NCBI GenBank assembly: GCA_000091205.1
Contig: AP006486.2
Direction: 5' to 3' (one strand)
From: Cyanidioschyzon merolae
Lineage: Eukaryota
DNA length: 64,000 nt
The notes under the pieces are model-generated. The model was not told the origin of the DNA. It saw only the letters and a program-made list of their open reading frames with translations, and did no database searches. The translations under genes were made by a program, and so were the position numbers. This document shows positions 9,061-42,700 of this stretch, piece after piece. Numbering within the stretch: position 1 is the first letter of the stretch; each line of letters begins with the position of its first letter.

Positions 9061-10136
9061 ACCAACCGCTAAAAGAGCGGACGATATCCACTGGCAAGCA
9101 ATTCGATACCAGTGTCGTTCGGCCTTCATGATAACCGTTGGAAAGGAGGATACGATTTCCGTATCTTCCAACGTTTGCCTTCTATGCCGAAGTGCCCGTG
9201 TGCCGGACGAGTATGCTGGGCCAGTGCTGCATGCTGCCCCCAGGGGTGGGTGCAGTTGCGCCACCTGAACAACTCGCCCGCAATGCAGTTGATTCTCGGA
9301 TTCAGGGCAGTTCGGGTGTGTCTCGAAGTCGCCCAGGTTGCAGTTATCTCCTAGTACACCGCATCGCGCTGCCGCATGCAGTAGGTCTGTCTGCGCAGTT
9401 TGCAGGCGCCCAGAATGATGTAGAGTGCCGACCCCGTGTCGGATGAACGACGCCTCGAGCCGACATGCCCATTGGTATGGCAACGCTGCTCTGTCTTTGT
9501 ATTGCATCCGCACTTGCGGTATAAGCGCTACAACGGGTGCAGCACTGCATGCACTCGGCGCGAGAGATACCATAACAAACGACCAGTGTATCCTAAAGAA
9601 AGTATGGGCCATGGAACCTGAAGGTACAGTGCGTCATGATGAATACGTTCCCGAATGCCTATATCCCTCATTTGATCTTGGGTATACGTTCAATGTAAAC
9701 CTTTAGTCGAACAAAAAATGGAAACGCTGCATAGGTGAATGAATAACGCAACATCCGCTCAAACCGTGCTACTGGCCGGCCAGTCTCCTCCGGAACGCTC
9801 ACATCATTCTATCAAGAGAATAACGATTGTGAACACACACTCGCCATCGACGGGCTTCCAGTCTGGCTCAGCATGGTCCCGTTACCATAACCCAATCGTT
9901 GCGTCTGTGCTAGTTTTCAACTTTCACTTGTTCAGCGCGGTAGTTTTCTCAAAAAAGTGCGCCGTTTCCGCTACGCCGAGCAGTTGCGTCACTCTCAGAG
10001 AAAAACGGTCGCAAGTGTAGGCGAGGCGTTTGTAACTGGACCACGTGTCCGGGGAGTGTCTGGCACCTGGTCTGTGGGGCGACTCCCTCAAAAGCTACAG
10101 CGGAGTCAGCATCAAGACTGGTTGCGTGTCTCGAGG

Positions 10137-24197: not shown

Positions 24198-24250
24198 CCG
24201 TCGCCGCCGCCGCCGCCGCCGCCACTACCACCACTACCACTACCACTCCC
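24198..24250. repeat. (GCC)n followed by (CCA/CTA)n trinucleotide microsatellite
   Basis: gccgtcgccgccgccgccgccgccgccactaccaccactaccactaccactccc. Confidence 0.8.
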
Positions 24251-25523: not shown

Positions 25524-25624
25524 CCCAGTGAGCCACGCTCTCCCCTGCACCGCACACCAACAACGAACGCCTCAAAAGACAAAAGTTGCTGCAGGCAGTG
25601 TACAGTAGTGCGGAGAAACCCGCC

Positions 25625-26381
25625 CTAGACAACTCGTCGCCAACTGACTTGCAGACGCCTCCTGGTCTTTTCGGACCGGCCACCTACAACTGATTCCATC
25701 TTTTTCTCATATAATTCAACTTTTAGAAGTTGTCCCACAAAGTTCGCTCGTGTCGACGCTGGAGGTCTCGTCTCCAGCATCGCACTTTTCCTTATATGGA
25801 TTGCTGCGTTACAGCCTCGGTTCATAAACTCCATTCGTTTATTGCCGCTGGTGGAAGTCACCATTTTAAGGAGTCCTTGAAGTCGTGCCTTCCGTTCCAT
25901 TTCATTTGCTGTCACCTCACCGTACTTTTCTATATCTTCTAGGATTTGCTGGCTCTTCCCCGTCTCGGCCGTCTGAATTGTACGCCCCAGTTCATCCCAT
26001 AATATTTTAAAATCAAGGCACTGCTTTATGCATTTAGCTGAGGACATTCCCGGAGGAGATAGCACTTGCGCAGAAAGGACGACAGGTGCCCCGGTAGTGT
26101 TGTATGCTGAGCGCTTCAGCGATTCGCTCCATGCATCGATCGATACGTTTCACGATACAAAACACTCCCTCAATGGGGTAGACCAACGGAAACCACTAAA
26201 GAATGAAAACCAGCTCTATCCAGACAGAATCGGCAAGATCTCGAACGCAACAGGAATGATGAAATGCCAGTTTGTCCCGTAGAAGGACGTCGTTAGACGT
26301 CAGGGAAAAGGGACCCTTAATTCGACAACGTGGTTGAACCTGTTGTACGAGGCTGCTCTTCAAGTTCGATCTTATACACAA
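25625..26381 (-). pseudogene. Decayed TnpB/Fanzor-like relic related to the 38598-39752 ORF (frameshifted, internal stop, inactive RuvC-III)
   Basis: Minus reading ILEDIEKYGEVTANEMERKARLQGLLKMVTSTSGNKRMEFMNRGCNAAIHI...TRPPASTRANFVGQLLKVELYEKKMESVVGG aligns colinearly with RTPEDIAKYGPLTEEQMERMAKVRGLLALGSTINGKKRMEFVSRDFNAAINV...RRPPELKRENFTGQSLKVELYERKLEAVVAG. SRD has become NRG. Upstream, ..AYNTTGAPVVLSAQ (matching KGTTPAPTIRT) follows an in-frame TGA at ~26150, and an earlier segment is in another frame. Confidence 0.5.
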
Positions 26382-34616: not shown

Positions 34617-36707
34617 TTAGGCAGCGCTCATGTCACCGCTGGCCAACTGCTTCTCAACGAGTTGGTAGTAGAATCCTGATGGGCCCAGAGCCATGAGCTC
34701 CGAGTGGTTGCCTTGTTCAACCACGACACCATCCTGCATTACGAGAATGAGGTCTGCACGCGCCACTGTGGACAAGCGGTGGGCAATCACAACGCTGGTA
34801 ACGCCGTCAGAGGCCATCATCCGATCCAGCGCCTCCTGAACGAGAGCCTCGCTCTCTGCATCCAGAGCGCTGGTGCTTTCATCCAAGCAGAGTAGCGTTG
34901 GATGCTTCAGAATCGCTCGAGCGATAGCGATGCGTTGTTTCTGGCCGCCGCTTAACGCCAGACCTCGCTCTCCGACCTCGGTATCCAGTCCATCGGGTAA
35001 TGCCATAACAAAAGAGTACGCATTGGCTTCGCGCAAGGCCTGAATGACCTCCTCATCTGTAGCATCTCGTTTGCCATAGAGAATATTATCGCGGATGGTT
35101 CCAGAAAATAGAACCGGCTCCTGCGAAACAAGCCCAATCTGACTACGCAAGGCGTGAAAGTCGTAGTTCCAGGCGGGCGTACCGTCGAAGAGCAAGAGAC
35201 CGCCGCCTTGCGGTTCGATATCGTAGAAGCGCATCAGGAGCTGAATAATGGTCGACTTGCCGGCACCGCTTCCGCCGACAATAGCGACCGTCTTTCCATT
35301 AGGGATTGTCAGGGAAATCCCTCGTAACACTTCCACGTTCATTCGTGTCGGGTACCGGAAGTGGACGTTCTCGAAGACAATGCCTTGCTTCAGTACCAGA
35401 GGCTGCGTGACGACTTCAGCGCCGGGGTCAGGACGTCGGTACTGTGGTACACGGTCGATCATTGCAAAGAGCTCGCCACCAGCACCGAGTCCGCGGGTGA
35501 CGTCAGGCCAGACCTGAGCCGCCTGACCGACTCCCATGAAGCCGAGTATGGCGCTGAAGAATGCAGTTAGCAAATTACCCAGATTCAGAGAGCCGCGAGC
35601 GATCAGTTGCCCGCCCCACCACAGGGCAAGCGCATAGACACAGAAAATCACCAACATAGACAGTCCAAAGAAGAGACCGTCTGAGATGTAGCGTCGCCTC
35701 CCCAGACGGTACAAGGGATCAAGCTTGCTGCCGTATCGTTGCGTTTCGTAGCGCTCTGCCTCGAAGGCTTTGGTCGTGCGAATATTCGAGAACACCTCCG
35801 CTGCAACCGATCCAGCACTCGCATACGCTTCAGAGCTTCTTTTCGTATTGCCACTCATCTCGATCATCTGGGCGGCACCAGCGAGCACAACCAACGGTGA
35901 GAGCGCGATCAAGACGCCAGTGAGGGCAGGCGCGAATATAAACGCCACGATTATACCGACAACGCATTGGGCGAGATTGAATAAAACCGCACCGAGTTTC
36001 GAGAACGAGTACTGGATGACCTGAACGTCGTTATTCAGCTTTCCACCGAGCTCACCAGCTTTGCGGCGGTCGAAATAAGTCACGTCTTGCTCGACCAGGT
36101 TGCTGAAAGCCGCGACTCGCAGGTCCCGAGCTAGACGTTCGCTTGCGATCCCAAACAAAGCCGTTCTTGACCCGGCTACGATGAACTCGAAGACACCGAT
36201 ACCGACGAATCCAACGGAATACTTCCATGTTTCGCCTTCGATCTGGCTTTTGCTCTTCGTGAAAACTTGAAACATTCGACCGAATACAATCGCGAACGCT
36301 GGTAGCGTTGCTCCTTCCAAAATAGAAGCAATGAATCCGATAACAATCATAGTTGCAGACGAGCTCCAGGCAAGCGCGAAGATTCGCCGTGCAGTCACGC
36401 CCGTGGTGTAAGCGCTCTCCGGACCAGAGGCCTTTGCCGCCTTTTTAGGGTCGCCTGCCTCGGGATCTTCACCAGCAGCCGACGGGCGTGCCCAAAACCG
36501 CCACCAACGTCGGTTAGGTGTGTCCTTCTCCTTCAATTTCAAACTTGGAAAAGATTCTTGAAACGCGGTCGCCTCCGAACTGACCGCAGTGTCCGGCGAC
36601 ACCGGGTCCGTCTCGTAAATTGAGCTGCTGAGGGTTCGCTCGCGGTGGTTTTCACCAACGCTGCTGTAGTTCGCTGTTTCAAAGCTTTGCGCTGCGTGAG
36701 CGTTCAT
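34617..36707 (-). CDS. ABC transporter, ABCB-type half transporter (TMD then NBD)
   Basis: ATG at 36707 (minus). Six TM helices are followed by Walker A VAIVGGSGAGKSTIIQLL, the ABC signature LSGGQKQRIAIARAIL, Walker B LLCLDESTSALD and the H-loop VVIAHRLST. Confidence 0.88.
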   Translation of the reverse strand: MNAHAAQSFETANYSSVGENHRERTLSSSIYETDPVSPDTAVSSEATAFQESFPSLKLKEKDTPNRRWWRFWARPSAAGEDPEAGDPKKAAKASGPESAYTTGVTARRIFALAWSSSATMIVIGFIASILEGATLPAFAIVFGRMFQVFTKSKSQIEGETWKYSVGFVGIGVFEFIVAGSRTALFGIASERLARDLRVAAFSNLVEQDVTYFDRRKAGELGGKLNNDVQVIQYSFSKLGAVLFNLAQCVVGIIVAFIFAPALTGVLIALSPLVVLAGAAQMIEMSGNTKRSSEAYASAGSVAAEVFSNIRTTKAFEAERYETQRYGSKLDPLYRLGRRRYISDGLFFGLSMLVIFCVYALALWWGGQLIARGSLNLGNLLTAFFSAILGFMGVGQAAQVWPDVTRGLGAGGELFAMIDRVPQYRRPDPGAEVVTQPLVLKQGIVFENVHFRYPTRMNVEVLRGISLTIPNGKTVAIVGGSGAGKSTIIQLLMRFYDIEPQGGGLLLFDGTPAWNYDFHALRSQIGLVSQEPVLFSGTIRDNILYGKRDATDEEVIQALREANAYSFVMALPDGLDTEVGERGLALSGGQKQRIAIARAILKHPTLLCLDESTSALDAESEALVQEALDRMMASDGVTSVVIAHRLSTVARADLILVMQDGVVVEQGNHSELMALGPSGFYYQLVEKQLASGDMSAA

Positions 36708-37600
36708 AGTACATATGACGGAAAAACGTATCTTCTTCCGTTACGACACGCAAAATAAGAAACGTCGTCGTCACTAGAACACAAACGACTGTTCACACCA
36801 GACGTAACGCTTTGGCAACCCGAAGGTAACGCGAACGATGCGACGCTCGGTACTGTGCTCTGTACCCAGCATCAAATCTGCGGCAGATTCCGCATCGCCA
36901 CAGAGAGGCGTTTCTGTGGACACCGTCGGTTGACCCGCGTGTGTTCGACGCGAGCATCCGCGGTGGTGGTGGTGGTGGTGGCAGCGGCAGCGGCGGCGGT
37001 GCTGGTGATCAGACAGCGCCCCCCGCGGCTCAAAATTTCGACGCTGCGCGCGAGGCGACCGTTCCTTCCGGCGCTGTGTGGATTCCCTGCCCGATGACAG
37101 CACGTTTCCGTTGACCACGGATGCCGGCATTCGGGATGGATATTCGCTTTCGGGAAAGCGTCTACTAGGAAGCACCTACCTTCAAGTTCCATTCCCCGTA
37201 CTTCGTCTCGTATGCACTGGTCGTTTCGTATGCTCTGTCGTGTGCCGAGTGCCTGCCTCGAGCACTCGCCGTAGCGCTTATACCGCTGAAGCAGGTGCTG
37301 CACGGAGACAGAACGGCGTTGCCATACCGCAGAGGGCGTCGGCTCGCGGAATCCTACATGTGACACGCAATCACGGCGAATTCTCATTCCGGGAGCCTGC
37401 AAGATGCGCAGTCAGAAGCGCTGCCTGCGATAGCGCGAGGCGATAGACGAAGAGTCCACTGGGACCTGGGCGACGCCCAGATGCAGCATCCTGCTCCTAC
37501 TCCCGAGCTGAACGAAATTGTGAACGAGTTGCTCAGATCTGACTAAAGTACCTGCCACTGGGAGAAGCATGAAGCACGAGCCTGGGATCCTGTCTTAATT

Positions 37601-39757
37601 GATATATCAAGTATCTATCAGAGCGAAAGTTGCGGGTGGGCATGAGAAACCGTGCGTCGAGTCGTACTCCGTGAGTATCATAAAGGCTTCCTCAGGAATA
37701 ATGCTTTTGGTGAAGGCGATGTATCGCGACTTGACGCAGATCGAAACAGTCGAGGTTTCGGAGGAGGAATTTTTCGACAAGAGCTTTCATCGTCACCTGA
37801 TGCTTGGCACAGGGGAAGCGCGGAGCAAAAAATAAGTGAGTGCACGCCCTCCACGAACACCACGCCGAATACCGCTTCAGCGGTGCTCCATACAGGGGTG
37901 ACTCGCGAATTTACGAATACGCGGCGATGGAGTACCGCACGAACCTGAAGAATCACGTGGTCGTGAAACTCGAACGTTTCATGATACGCTCCATCTTTGC
38001 GTAGTATCCGGGCCTCTCTCGCAAAGGAATATGCGCGATCATCGACAGCATCACGAACGATTGTCAGCATGAACAGGAGATCGAATTCGTCGACAAGAAG
38101 GCGTCATATAGGAGAAGGAATGAGGTTTCTGTAATCCGCGCCACTATTGAAGAGAACCGTGCGGTCTTGGGGCCGGCGAATCCAGCAGAAAAGGTATCAG
38201 ATATGAAATAAACATGGAAAAAGATGTTATCCTTTAATTCTGCTCGATTTCGTATTTTTGGACCGAGAATCCGAACGCAAGGCGGAGATGAAGCTGAGTG
38301 AGGAAAAAATGAAGAGTGGGAGAGACGGAAGGCTGTCCGAATGGGGAAGCGCTTCAACGTCGTTCCAATGTGCAACATCAAGTCACATTTTGTGACTGTC
38401 GACTCCAGAATCCTTCATGACTTCATGAAAGAGATCAGTCCCGAGCTCAATGTTAGCAGGGAGGGGTTCTCCGGCGAAAACCGGGTGACGTTCTGCAAGA
38501 GAATCTTCGATTTCAAACGTCTCAATGTGAGCAAACAAGGGGTATTACTGGGATGATCGAAACCGATGTAGTGGCCATGTGTGTACACTAGCGGCGCTTG
38601 AAGAAAGATCGTCCAGTTCCGTCTGTGACGAAAGATGAAGATAAGAGGAAGGCGGATCCTGCGACACAGAAAGTTCAGGATAACTTTTTTGTCGTTGGCG
38701 CAGACCCTGGGAATACGAATATCATAACCATCGCTGTACCCAAACGTGCGGAAGATGGTACTGACGGCAACTTACGTCAGAAACACATACGTCTTTTGAG
38801 GTTCTCGAGAGCGAGATACTATCGAGAATCCGGTATAATGAATGCAAGGAAGAAAATTGATACGTGGAATGCAGGAATGAAGGATCACCTCGAAGTTTTG
38901 GGCGAGGTGACGAGTCGAGGAGCGGACTTTGAAGCTTTTCGGAAATTCATGGAAATACGCGTTGCTCATTGGGATGCCTTGTGGGAGGAGTGTACCAAGC
39001 CCCGGTGGGCTCGTTTGCGTATGAATCTGCACTGTGGGAAGCAGCGGGCGTTTGCCAACTTTTTCAATCAGTTGAGCGCTCTGAAGAGGAATGAAAGTCA
39101 GAGGCTCGTAGTAGCGTACGAAGCAGGGCGCTGGAAGACCCAAAAGGGGACCACGCCAGCCCCAACGATAAGAACGTACAAAGAGTGCGCAAGGCGTTTT
39201 GTTACGATACCTGTAGATGAGTTCCGAACGTCCTATACACATCACGAACTGGGGTGTACACTTCAGAGGGTCGAGATGGAAAGGTGCCAGCGGACCCCTG
39301 AGGATATCGCAAAGTATGGACCGCTGACGGAAGAGCAAATGGAAAGGATGGCGAAAGTTCGTGGACTGCTTGCATTAGGAAGCACCATCAATGGCAAGAA
39401 ACGTATGGAGTTTGTGAGCCGGGACTTTAACGCCGCGATCAATGTAACGATATGCGCAGCGATGGAAAGGAGACCTCCAGAGCTGAAACGAGAGAACTTT
39501 ACTGGACAATCACTCAAAGTCGAACTATATGAGAGAAAGTTGGAGGCAGTAGTCGCTGGCCCGCCGAGCAAGGCTGGGAGGCATCTGCACATCCGTTGGA
39601 GACTTCTTGTCCTGGGCGAGTTTCTCGCCACCACTGTACACTGCCGGCAGCAACGTTTTTTCTTTTGGAAGTTGTGTGTCGTCGTTCTGGCACTGGAATG
39701 GAGTTCATTCACGACGCCTTCGGACGAGGCGTACGTTCGTTATCCCACTTGAATATC
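37601..39757 (+). mobile_element. Putative Fanzor/TnpB-bearing transposon-like insertion (~2.16 kb), AT-rich 5' half
   Basis: There is a sharp GC-to-AT shift at ~37595. The left end GATATATCAAGT (37601-37612) and right end ACTTGAATATC (39747-39757, reverse complement GATATTCAAGT) form an imperfect 11/12 inverted repeat with one indel. The right inverted repeat overlaps the ORF stop (TGA 39750-39752). GC-rich host sequence resumes after 39757. Confidence 0.4.
38598..39752 (+). CDS. TnpB/Fanzor-like RuvC nuclease (OMEGA family); RuvC D-E-D triad intact; N-terminal WED/REC region not in this ORF (possibly intron-split or degraded upstream)
   Basis: RuvC-I FFVVGADPGNTNIITIAV (Asp codon 38703-38705). 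TnpB-like helical linker ARLRMNLHCGKQRAFANFFNQLSAL. RuvC-II LVVAYEAGRW (Glu 39120-39122). YKECARRFVTIPVDEFRTSYT with a degenerate zinc ribbon (HHELGC…RC). RuvC-III SRDFNAAINV (Asp 39423-39425). The track start is TTG, with no in-frame ATG before residue 79. Confidence 0.65.
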   Translation: MKKDRPVPSVTKDEDKRKADPATQKVQDNFFVVGADPGNTNIITIAVPKRAEDGTDGNLRQKHIRLLRFSRARYYRESGIMNARKKIDTWNAGMKDHLEVLGEVTSRGADFEAFRKFMEIRVAHWDALWEECTKPRWARLRMNLHCGKQRAFANFFNQLSALKRNESQRLVVAYEAGRWKTQKGTTPAPTIRTYKECARRFVTIPVDEFRTSYTHHELGCTLQRVEMERCQRTPEDIAKYGPLTEEQMERMAKVRGLLALGSTINGKKRMEFVSRDFNAAINVTICAAMERRPPELKRENFTGQSLKVELYERKLEAVVAGPPSKAGRHLHIRWRLLVLGEFLATTVHCRQQRFFFWKLCVVVLALEWSSFTTPSDEAYVRYPT

Positions 39758-39780
39758 CAGTGGGTGCGCACAAGGCGCTG
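39480..39780 (+). ncRNA. Candidate omega-RNA (Fanzor guide RNA) scaffold overlapping the ORF 3' tail and right end; the guide would derive from flank 3' of 39757
   Basis: The ~85-codon post-RuvC-III tail is not protein-like but is conserved at the nucleotide level with the relic copy. One block, tttctcgccaccactgtacactgccggcagcaacgttttttcttttgg, versus tttctccgcactactgtacactgcctgcagcaacttttgtcttttga, is ~88% identical over 47 nt. A local stem cctcag/ctgagg lies at 39845-39890. Placement follows TnpB/Fanzor biology. Confidence 0.3.
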
Positions 39781-42700
39781 AGCTGCTCCATTTTTTGTGT
39801 GCAGCGTGTTCAGATGATGCATGCTGCAGTTTTTCGATATTCATGCCTCAGGGTAACGCTGCGCAGCATGTCGACATCCTGTCTGAGGGCACGAAAAAGT
39901 CGGCAGCGTCGTTCGACGTGTTCAAAAGCTCGTGCCGCATCAAGTTACGGGCACCACACGATTCATAAATCCGCATCATTTCGTTGCCGTCGACGAAACC
40001 GCATGCGACATCCCCATCGTATTGCTCCGGGGATATGCAACCGGGCGTTTCCGTCTCTTCTGTTTCCATGGAAAAGGATCTCACACTCGGATTTCCCACA
40101 TTGCAGCAATCGCTTCCCATGGAGCATGCGTCACTGCTCTGCACGTTAGCAGCATCGACGGATCGAAGGTTATTGATGCGATCTCCGGTCTGGAGTTCGC
40201 TTCTGGATTTTGTCTCATCAGGATTGACATTGACTTTTACAAATCCCTTATTGAATGCGGTAGTGCGCGAATGCCCGATAACGTACTCGCCGAGGCAATC
40301 GCTCAGAAGAAGCAGGTCGTTTCAGGGTAAACCATTGGGTAAGGGAACCGAAGGCATCTACAGGGACCTCGCAAAAGCGTAAACGGTGCGATGAAACCAG
40401 TCTGAGCGCGCCACGGGCTGGTACTCGTAGCAAGTTGTATGGTCGGCGTACCGGACCACCTGACTGCATCCACGTGTCACCGCTGAGGAGGGCGCTCCAA
40501 AGCTGTCCACAAAGAGTACGAGAATGGCACGCAAGCCGTGTGTCGGAACTTTCGTCTGTGCAAGCAATGCGTCGTCAACGGACGTAAGCAGCGTGATCAT
40601 GAATTGACCGCTGTCATCATGATCATCATCATCCTTCGAATGCAGATCACGGAGCTCATGTAAAGGCTCAGACTGGCGTATTCGAAGCCCGAGCGAACCG
40701 AGTGAAACCGAAAGCAGTCACGGGAGAGATGTCCGCAAAGGCTGGTGCGAATTACAATTGGAAGAGACCCAAACTCCATCGTTTATGCCCGTATTCGAGG
40801 ACCTATTCCGTGTTATGCTGACATATGTCTAGTCGCTTTGTTGAACGTGAGACTAGTTAAGGGGTTCCAAGCGGTCTCAGCGCATGCATGCCCACAGGAG
40901 CGCGGCTCCACCTGCCTCGCTATTCCTGGAGAAAGCGCTGTCAAGCGAGTACGCTGACGGCTACGCGATCAGACAAGATGCCTCATACGCCGTCTCCATG
41001 AGGCGCTTCGCAGGATCCCCACGGGTGTCGGCTGCGTATGCAACTAGCGTTCAAATGCTTCACCGTTGTCTTTGAGGAATCAAGCAGTTCTACCGAGGTA
41101 AACGTCTTCGTGTATCTAAGTTCGTACCGCAAAATAGCCGCACAAATCCAGGTGTGGTAGCGACAGCTCCGCAATCATAGACGATAAAAAATGAGCATTG
41201 CCTTTTCTAATGAGGCATTTATCGACTCTGCCGCCAAGAGTCACTCGTGATCATGGACGCACGCTCACGAAGCCTTGCACATCGCATGTGAAGAACTCGT
41301 GCTGCGTCCCTTGGGCAAGGAAGCTGCAGGCTTTGCGTTCGAAAAGCCTCAGATTTGGCTATTGTTCAGTTGCCCCCTATCATAAAAACGCATTTCCATG
41401 GTGAACAAGAATATCCCGCCGCACATTGGAATCGATTTTTGTCGATTCCCTGACTTGGCGTTCGCACCGACTTCTCAGCCACAGTTGCCACTCCAGGCAT
41501 CGTCGCACTTGGTTACGGGATTTCTATGGACGACACCCATCGACGGACACCATGCCGAGTCCTATTCTCGATACACGAACCGCTACACCACCGGAACATG
41601 GTCATGCGTTCGTGAGCATGCAAGTGCAGGCATTGTGACCCGCGCATATGCGCCACGTTCCCAGTCAAGACGATTCGTTAGCGTCTATACATCTGCGAAT
41701 TTCGAACCACCACATATATTCCCCATAAAGAGCCGACTCGATCGCAGCGAGCACGCCTCGCAATGATCTCGCATTCACCAGCTTCGGCGTTTTGGCAGGA
41801 TGCTCCTGGTGTCGTGTTCGGCAGGGAGCGTAGATCAGGACAGGCGGTCTCATTTAGAGAAACGTACATGAATCTCTACGCTTTGCCAGGTTGGAATTGG
41901 ATCCGTACGGTTTCGGATGCAGCAAGAGTCGCAGCACAACCAGCCGATTCATGATGGTCAATGATCGGCAGTTTCCAGCCTTGGTCGCGTCGCTGATGCG
42001 CATTGGCAAGCGTTGTGTACGCCCCCGGTTGAAAAAGGTGCATCCGTAGACCGCGAAGATGCTGACACGGAAACGTAAACAAGGCCAGTAGGCATCAACT
42101 ATTGCTACTGGAATCATGGCACTTGAGAGAGCAGCGCATACCCGCTTCTGTGACTTGGTGCTTTGGGCGGAACCGCACTGTACGCACTTTCTGGGCTATT
42201 CGGGCCAATGAATATCGAAACAGAACATAAGATCCAGAAGAGCTCGTCGTGAAGGTGCTCAGTTCCAACCAGGTCAAGAGTCGCGGGAGCCGATGAATCG
42301 CATCAGAACTTGAGTCAGCAAGAACGTAGCGCAACTGCTCCAGCGTCGTCGCTAACCTTGTTTCACAGACTCCGTTTGCGACGTTGTGACAGCTTCGTAT
42401 CACGACTCCATACGTTGAGCAAAGAGCGTGCAGGTCTCGTGCTTGCGCTAGCGGAACGCACGAACTCGGCGATGACTCTTGCGGACGCCAGTCGCGAGTA
42501 TACAGTTGTCTTCCATCGCTCAGCACTGTCGTTCCTCCAGCGATGGAAACAAAAAACTCTCCTCAAACAAGAGCATCTGAAAGCTATCAACCTGGTTCCA
42601 AAAAAGTTCCACCAGAGAACCGTTTCATTGTATACCTTGTCTAAAACGTTCGACAACTCGCCCGTCAAGCGGCTCAGAGGCGAGCAACTCGTCTACGACA

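Follow-up and report, generated by a model that had tools for sequence, protein, structure and literature searches.

The locus and its transposon copy

The window, meaning the whole 64,000-nucleotide (nt) stretch of DNA analysed here, comes from the red alga Cyanidioschyzon merolae 10D, and is ~55% G+C and gene-dense. On its plus strand at 37091–39681 lies a decayed copy of the transposon CMe-1A, whose single gene encodes a homologue of the nuclease Fanzor1; the right boundary of the copy is uncertain within 39681–39690. An earlier note on this DNA, made from the letters alone, had placed a candidate scaffold of a Fanzor guide RNA (omega-RNA) at 39480–39780. The analysis presented here points to a smaller feature, a non-coding module at 39612–39681 that begins at the stop codon in the family, and at the level of the family this module is probably the omega-RNA scaffold of the CMe-1A Fanzor1. 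Upstream of the element is an ABC transporter gene (34617–36707, minus strand) identical to CmABCB1 (BAM79212.1). A scan of the window for tRNA genes found none.

CMe-1A was reported in 2013 as a Fanzor1 element of C. merolae present in ~150 copies, which are ~80% identical to their consensus, ~3 kb in length and without terminal inverted repeats (TIRs), the target-site duplications (TSDs) being undetermined (Bao and Jurka, 2013, Mob DNA 4:12; PMC3627910). The 5′ 635 bp of the element constitute a second repeat, TE-N2_CMe (PMC3627910). The family found in the window shares with CMe-1A the genome, the many copies (~75–80% alike), the length of ~3 kb, the single Fanzor1 open reading frame (ORF), the absence of TIRs and a separable 5′ block of ~0.5–0.6 kb. 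The assignment of the window element to this already known family rests on the published description. Unlike the present account, the 2013 paper predates the discovery of omega-RNA and describes no right-end structure, and unlike CMe-1A as published, the window copy is internally deleted and pseudogenised.

For comparison, 80 loci with related copies were taken from hot-spring metagenomes and reduced to 41–50 non-redundant copies. All-against-all BLASTN of 83 loci gives an element length of ~3.3 kb. Copies are 0.82–0.86 identical pairwise. Homology of the window copy extends from 37091 to 39679, i.e. from 2309 nt before to 279 nt after an anchor set at 39400. The 5′ block at 37091–37585 (plus strand) is also found alone elsewhere, in either orientation, and fits the published description of TE-N2_CMe. 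Positions 575–1077 of one copy (L010) align to 37091–37585 and positions 1652–1797 to 37589–37736, and thus ~575 nt of that copy are deleted in the window copy, at the junction 37585/37589. A third repeat fragment in the window, at 9097–9669 (minus strand), is 67–70% identical to the element 5′ block (37135–37474; L010 651–1195); it lacks both a Fanzor ORF and a tail, and fits the separate repeat TE-N2_CMe.

The Fanzor1 gene

The ORF at 38598–39752 carries RuvC motifs, with the RuvC-I Asp in GADPGNT (38697–38717), the Glu in VDEFRTS (39213–39233) and the RuvC-III Asp in SRDFNAAINV (39417–39446). The part at 38598–39611 (plus strand) represents the C-terminal 338 codons of the Fanzor1 pseudogene and falls under the codon-position signature of the family; mean pairwise identity of the gene among 41 non-redundant copies is 0.86, 0.89 and 0.75 at codon positions 1, 2 and 3, a clear sign of coding. 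Pfam gave no match to the window ORF or to a relic copy elsewhere in the window, and a shallow profile built from CMe copies alone gave no Fanzor match in PDB. An exhaustive HMMER search yielded 1421 clusters of relatives, typically of 600–700 amino acids (aa). A profile of 36 diverse relatives, two CMe copies included, matched in PDB the Fanzor1 (Fz1) proteins of Parasitella (9cf0, E = 5.8e-20), Spizellomyces (8gkh, E = 8e-11) and Guillardia (9cer, E = 2.7e-5), and in it the motifs DPG..., DEFRTS and NRD.NAA.NI align with SpuFz1 and PpFz1. As this wide profile matches Fanzor1 proteins of known structure from three organisms, and the catalytic motifs align, the product of the window ORF is a Fanzor1 homologue.

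Some properties of the protein are less typical. In the region of the C4 zinc finger motif of Bao and Jurka, between the TS and RD motifs, the CMe family reads TSYTHHELGC...C and has no CxxC pairs. Weak matches to PF07282 (TNB) occur in two distant relatives only (P0134, E = 0.0023; P0288, marked ‘weak’), and the relatives' protein length is 583–702 aa. AlphaFold2 modelling on an 18-sequence alignment gave a confidence score (pLDDT) of 34.5 and is unusable. Just before RuvC-I there is a unit of ~22 aa (KDEE.KEA.PA.QEV.DND.VV), the repeat number of which varies among copies. It was seen in P0001, P0002, P0004, P0007, P0008 and P0011, from one unit in the window (~38600–38690) to up to ~7 in P0002. 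One family member of 581 aa (P0118) has precomputed methyltransferase domains (PF13847, PF13649, PF08241) and may be a fusion protein produced by read-through into an adjacent gene; a methyltransferase role for Fanzor is an old idea, which makes these domains curious.

The window copy is a pseudogene and not a working Fanzor1. This is because the upstream parts of the gene (37599–38597) have a frameshift and an in-frame TAG (VH*RRLKK) around 38540–38595, the 575-nt deletion lies upstream, the stop codon has been lost and the first stem of the end module is degraded.

Where the coding sequence ends

The codon at 39612–39614 (plus strand) marks the family stop position. It is a stop in 36 of 50 non-redundant copies (TAG in 32, TAA in three and TGA in one), and the homologues P0004 and P0007 end there. 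The window alone has CTG and its orthologue L001, from another assembly, has CAG; the read-through codon varies among the remaining copies (CAA, CAG, CTG and others). There is no codon-position signal beyond ~39580, and an indel of five or six T residues inside the supposed ORF tail shifts the frame between orthologous loci. Everything past 39611 is non-coding, and the long ORF tail at 39612–39752 (plus strand), which is open by chance, is an accident of the window copy. The description of this tail in the earlier note as non-protein-like is thus well founded.

One might still ask if a translated and folded extension of the protein is encoded by the C-terminal region and the ~47 codons that follow RuvC-III, as the frame is indeed open to 39752 in the window copy. 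With a stop codon in most copies, a frame-shifting polymorphism between orthologous loci, no codon-position signature and no homology beyond ~39681, this explanation can be set aside with near certainty, and a translated C-terminal domain was rejected on these grounds. A further ORF in the +1 frame (39607–40149, plus strand), which is fused to the Fanzor ORF in an ENA gene call (P0003), is likewise open by accident, in non-coding DNA rich in G+C. Spurious ORFs of great length are frequent on either strand across the window.

The right end of the element

BLASTN of 39400–39800 against all loci shows that paralogous copies all end at 39641–39679 and that only four orthologous loci continue. In the all-against-all comparison the rightmost homology of ~75 independent copies falls at 273–299 nt past the anchor, i.e. 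~39680–39690, and the per-column majority fraction drops from 0.74–0.90 to ~0.35 beyond ~39685. Past the last stem there is a conserved TTYGGTG (16 nt in subfamily B), followed by unrelated sequence. The first 10 nt after this stem are poor in A (9%) and rich in G+T (71%), and the G+T bias continues for ~10–17 nt beyond the last conserved base.

By these homology limits the right end of the element is at 39681–39690. The earlier note had put it at 39757, with a guide starting at 39758 (cagtgggtgcgc...), but this is merely the end of the accidental ORF and lies ~70–75 nt too far downstream. Its scaffold span of 39480–39780 likewise has to be narrowed to ~39612–39681, as it consists of three parts: coding sequence (39480–39611), the non-coding end module (39612–39681) and unrelated flank (39682–39780). 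The first bases of the flank, at 39682–39700 (plus strand), are the putative guide template, as suggested by the homology limits and the flank composition; in subfamily B the element extends perhaps to ~39690.

GGT-rich tracts are found 3′ of the right end in several copies (e.g. L054 and L063), and hint at a target or flank preference. The window also has (GGT)n(GGC)n microsatellites at 36963–36999 and 24198–24246, the first of which is ~90 nt upstream of the left end of the element.

Structure and folding of the end module

The module has three parts. The first stem-loop, SL-A (GGCGAG-UUU-CUCGCC, 39615–39629, plus strand), has in the family consensus a stem that extends through the stop codon, UAG pairing with CUA, to reach nine pairs; the extension is broken in the window copy. 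A single-stranded box, ACCACUGUACAC (family consensus ACUACUGUACAC), follows at 39630–39641 (plus strand), and is present at the expected offset with two or fewer mismatches in 76 of the 83 loci. The second and terminal stem-loop, SL-B, with the GU-rich end, is at 39645–39681 (plus strand). SL-B has 10–17 pairs in well-kept copies, and its sequence and register differ by subfamily. The consensus of the family is UAG-GGCGGG-uuu-CUCGCC-a-CUA-CUGUACAC-(variable)-CGUCGUUCGA-cuu-UCGAACGGCG-UUUGGUG, and its second hairpin is 10 pairs long, reaching 17 when extended. This hairpin takes another register (AACGUUUUUC-uucu-GAAAGGCGUU) in subfamily B, which includes the window copy and the relic; a 10-pair terminal hairpin is kept in both subfamilies. 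A covariance model of the module matches 39609–39681 with 59.4 bits, and in the whole window it finds only the two known tails, that of the relic with 50.9 bits.

Compared with dinucleotide shuffles, the module folds with a mean z of −1.48 in 50 copies, versus +0.15 and −0.50 where coding sequence serves as control; in L050, a well-kept copy, z reaches −5.0. Folds of the sense strand are more stable (−21.8 kcal/mol) than those of the antisense strand (−18.0 kcal/mol; p = 2e-5). This asymmetry stems from G-U pairs, and therefore favours an RNA over a DNA structure.

A structure on the sense strand that begins at the stop codon and ends in a GU-rich sequence also brings to mind the 3′ untranslated region of the Fanzor mRNA, with a hairpin and a GU-rich tract as a signal for termination or 3′-end processing. 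A consensus scan for promoters and terminators, bacterial in type, found nothing, and so no terminator-like site; homology ends ~7–16 nt from the hairpin, which fits a transposon end. A conserved single-stranded box and a stem that embeds the stop codon are not known from eukaryotic 3′-end signals. A role limited to the mRNA 3′ end is improbable in our estimation.

A better candidate, though still an unlikely one, is that the module serves as a cis-acting DNA end for transposition only, e.g. as a subterminal hairpin for a trans-acting transposase or a rolling-circle enzyme, and has no role as RNA. The module is the terminal ~70 nt of the element and has a strong hairpin near the end. There are also 5′-truncated or solo tails and head-to-tail arrangements (L025 105–176, L034 36–107 and L077 261–328), which recall the overabundance of 3′ ends in Helitron2-type Fanzor elements of Chlamydomonas (PMC3627910). 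Several properties do not fit. The sense strand folds more stably than its complement, the left end carries no inverted copy of the box and hence there is no TIR or asymmetric TIR (ATIR), the terminus is not CTRR, neither the element nor its close copies have a transposase gene, and the Tc1/mariner-type TIRs of distant relatives are missing from CMe-1A. TE-N2_CMe, by the published account, spreads without the tail (PMC3627910). A Helitron or Helitron2 3′ end in particular was considered and rejected; the hairpin is present, but there is no CTRR and no reverse complement of the box near the left end. The two functions need not exclude each other, as the end of IS200/IS605 elements serves both transposition and guide RNA.

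The three loci with extra tails have a common arrangement: a tail module upstream of a full element, then a conserved spacer of ~80 nt (...TCGATGTACAGGTTAGGCTC...AATCTTATAGAGTAGA...), and then the left end. The upstream tail of L077 is joined to Fanzor coding sequence, so that the copies are head-to-tail, and that of L025 is solo. Tandem insertion could account for such tails, as could a composite unit that was amplified, or copies truncated at the 5′ end.

Conservation of the module and the relic copy

The window contains a second copy of the family, a 5′-truncated relic at 25561–25993 (minus strand), with its end module at 25630–25561 and the TAG kept at 25627–25625. It has lost the RuvC-III Asp (NRGCNAAIH). 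BLASTN pairs 39246–39667 with 25993–25573 (minus strand) at 73% identity. The argument of the earlier note for a functional RNA was that the tail aligns to this relic at ~80–88% nucleotide identity and the proteins are only ~50% identical. The figures themselves are right: in a global alignment 39612–39667 is 84% identical (47/56), the block quoted there 86%, and the proteins 49% over 122 aa. The contrast drawn from them does not signal conservation, as a nucleotide identity is set against an amino-acid identity. Coding DNA of the two copies is 71.6% identical, with 0.75, 0.69 and 0.71 at the three codon positions and no bias. Because divergence is equal at all three positions, the coding difference is best read as neutral decay of two pseudogenes, which alone yields ~50% amino-acid identity.

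Perhaps, then, the likeness of the two tails also reflects only shared ancestry and neutral decay, with no selected function. The excess of the tail over coding DNA in the pair is borderline (84% versus 72%, Fisher p = 0.053), and among the 41 non-redundant copies mean pairwise identity of 39612–39681 is 0.64, which is below the 0.75 of third codon positions; covariation on an unbiased alignment, as detailed below, is nil. The average, however, hides large differences between segments. Identity is 0.89 in the GGCG arm and 0.93 in the CGCC arm of SL-A, 0.47 in the 7 nt between the arms, 0.84 in the 12-nt box and 0.61 in the last hairpin. Arms and box together exceed third codon positions (p = 0.004), and only this core of ~20 nt, GGCG...CGCC plus ACTACTGTACAC, stands out; it is conserved like non-synonymous sites while the enclosed loop varies freely. 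The folding z-scores of well-kept copies (down to −5) and analogous hairpins in relatives with 35–40% protein identity also speak against decay alone, which we consider very improbable.

An RNA overlapping the ORF could reveal itself by better conserved synonymous sites toward the 3′ end of the frame. No clear rise is seen, as third positions have an identity of 0.75–0.79 in the last 180 nt versus 0.70–0.82 upstream.

A candidate omega-RNA scaffold

The omega-RNA of characterised Fanzor1 systems is encoded at the gene's 3′ end and extends to the right terminus of the transposon, its guide being supplied by the 3′ flank (PMC10432273, PMC11423790); overlap of this RNA with the ORF may be present or absent (PMC10432273). 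At a length of 75–150 nt, Fanzor1 omega-RNAs begin with a conserved stem-loop of seven pairs; the part behind it varies and seems to be under no constraint, and the guide comes last (PMC11423790). The module in the CMe family spans the region from the stop codon (39612) to the limit of homology (~39681–39690), which is where an omega-RNA template would be expected.

The following scheme is proposed. The non-coding right-end module of CMe-1A, 39612–39681 in the window, would be transcribed from the sense strand into a scaffold with a stop-embedding hairpin (UAG-GGCGGG-uuu-CUCGCC-a-CUA), the box ACUACUGUACAC, a variable hairpin of 10–17 pairs and a short GU-rich end. This scaffold would be bound by the Fanzor1 nuclease, and ~15–20 nt of host DNA past the element end, here from ~39682–39691, would serve as the guide template. 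Any activity of the window copy would require a Fanzor protein from an intact copy elsewhere.

The case for such a function is made by the protein homology together with the resemblance in position, size and order of parts. The proteins of Spizellomyces punctatus, Parasitella parasitica and Guillardia theta (8gkh, 9cf0 and 9cer) are homologous to the CMe family, and their omega-RNAs resemble the predicted CMe module in lying between the end of the gene and the right terminus, in the conserved first stem-loop and in the variable second one; in the CMe family, too, the flank would then supply the guide. The predicted scaffold of ~65–70 nt is also similar in size to the total of 75–150 nt in known Fanzor1 omega-RNAs. 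There are differences as well. The module has no sequence or Rfam similarity to these RNAs, and its first stem has 4–6 pairs (nine when extended) and not a fixed seven. The CMe family, unlike the Fanzor1 systems, shows no TIR, TSD, transposon-adjacent motif (TAM) or associated transposase, and its TNB zinc finger is seemingly degenerate (HH..C...C). The guide RNA of IS200/IS605 TnpB elements (reRNA, or right-end RNA, also termed omega-RNA; e.g. ISDra2) offers a second parallel, as its scaffold is templated by the 3′ part of the nuclease gene together with the right end, flanking DNA provides the guide, and the end sequence doubles as transposon end. The larger, pseudoknotted and ORF-overlapping scaffold of the bacterial RNA, the TnpA Y1 transposase and the defined TAM are not seen here.

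A number of results weigh against the omega-RNA assignment. Taken in full, the module is conserved less than synonymous sites are and forms no conservation peak, and in the window copy its folding is on a par with that of shuffles (z = −0.35). RNAalifold on 50 tails keeps only four invariant pairs, with no compensatory change. The earlier note had named a lack of covariation-supported structure among right-end homologues as a refutation; on a MAFFT alignment there is no significant covariation (paired cells 69.5% versus 68.8% shuffled, with a score equal to that of shuffles), and the extended first stem is not significant. A modest excess appears only on an alignment fitted with the covariance model, where 17 versus 11 pairs have double changes, above 500 of 500 shuffles, and such an alignment favours the fitted structure by construction. 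The copies are mutually related, so that p-values across copies are inflated. A search of Rfam found no family above its gathering threshold anywhere in the window, and with the cut-off relaxed to E ≤ 10 it found nothing meaningful in 39300–39800. The junction of scaffold and guide is uncertain by ~9 nt owing to the persisting GU-rich bias and to the 16 nt shared in subfamily B. At the left end, where a TAM would be sought, long copies begin their homology at a T-rich stretch before TTCGATGACAAAACGTTT; the 5′ regions differ among copies, and no shared upstream motif emerged.

On balance, the module is probably the omega-RNA scaffold of the CMe-1A Fanzor1 at the level of the family, judging by analogy with the characterised systems. 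The probability of a working RNA from the decayed window copy is much lower. The proposal of an omega-RNA at the 3′ end of a Fanzor gene has therefore fared well in that the protein is a Fanzor1 homologue and a discrete hairpin-box-hairpin module is found there; the conservation argument offered for it was weak, and both span and guide were misplaced.

Distant relatives and the origin of CMe-1A

There are 19 full-length relatives of 33–41% identity, most of them directly after a gene for a DDE_3 (Tc1/mariner-type) transposase. In these the TIR is ~170–190 nt past the Fanzor stop codon and reads ...GGTGTTCCAWWATTCATTTnnCGGAGTATA. Compact units of DDE_3 transposase, Fanzor1 and TIR (L083–L092) come from unrelated metagenomes, brine and freshwater included. 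A search with the covariance model of the CMe tail gave no match in the distant relatives. Relatives with 35–40% identity in protein have a hairpin soon after the stop, with a UUGGRU loop and stems that differ, e.g. CCUUGG/CCAAGG in L084 versus CCGGGC/GCCCGG in L087. In L088 the hairpin is followed by UACUGUA, a 7-mer also present in the CMe box, and the motif YATAYAC is shared by the post-stop regions of the relatives. This likeness, seen in seven sequences only, is suggestive.

Tc1/mariner-type elements with DDE_3 and Fanzor1 (Bao and Jurka, 2013; L083–L092) are thus similar to CMe-1A in having a Fanzor1 that is 35–40% identical, a non-coding hairpin after the stop and a YATAYAC-like box, and unlike it in having an upstream transposase gene and ~170–190 nt between the stop and a clear TIR. 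The DDE_3 transposase gene and the TIRs are absent from the window copy and from ~75 close copies. From this comparison CMe-1A appears to be a derivative in which transposase and TIRs were lost. The left end of CMe-1A (TTCGATGACAAAACGTTT) faintly resembles the 5′ TIR of the relatives (CTCGTCAAAATGAAT). CMe-1A may be a decayed Tc1/mariner derivative, and this would address its ‘unknown classification’.

How the family spread is a separate question. CMe-1A has ~150 copies without a transposase gene, TIRs or recognisable TSDs, and its ORF was under purifying selection during the spread (0.86/0.89/0.75). It is conceivable, if rather doubtful, that Fanzor1 and the ~70-nt right-end RNA are themselves the engine of mobility or maintenance, through RNA-guided cleavage and repair-mediated copying, the Tc1/mariner transposase having been lost. 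If this were the case, the arrangement of tail, 80-nt spacer and left end at three loci would be the footprint of the process, and a thermoacidophilic alga would hold a compact and heat-tolerant pair of Fanzor and omega-RNA that works without a transposase.

Significance

The value of this particular locus is mostly corrective: the family is a known one, this copy no longer works, its long ORF tail is artefactual, and the right end and candidate guide are ~75 nt upstream of where they had been placed. Should the module be the omega-RNA scaffold of CMe-1A, it would provide a concrete and small design, ~65–70 nt with two hairpins, for testing a Fanzor1 from a thermoacidophilic and genetically tractable red alga. 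It would also explain why the ORF has been retained in an apparently non-autonomous family.

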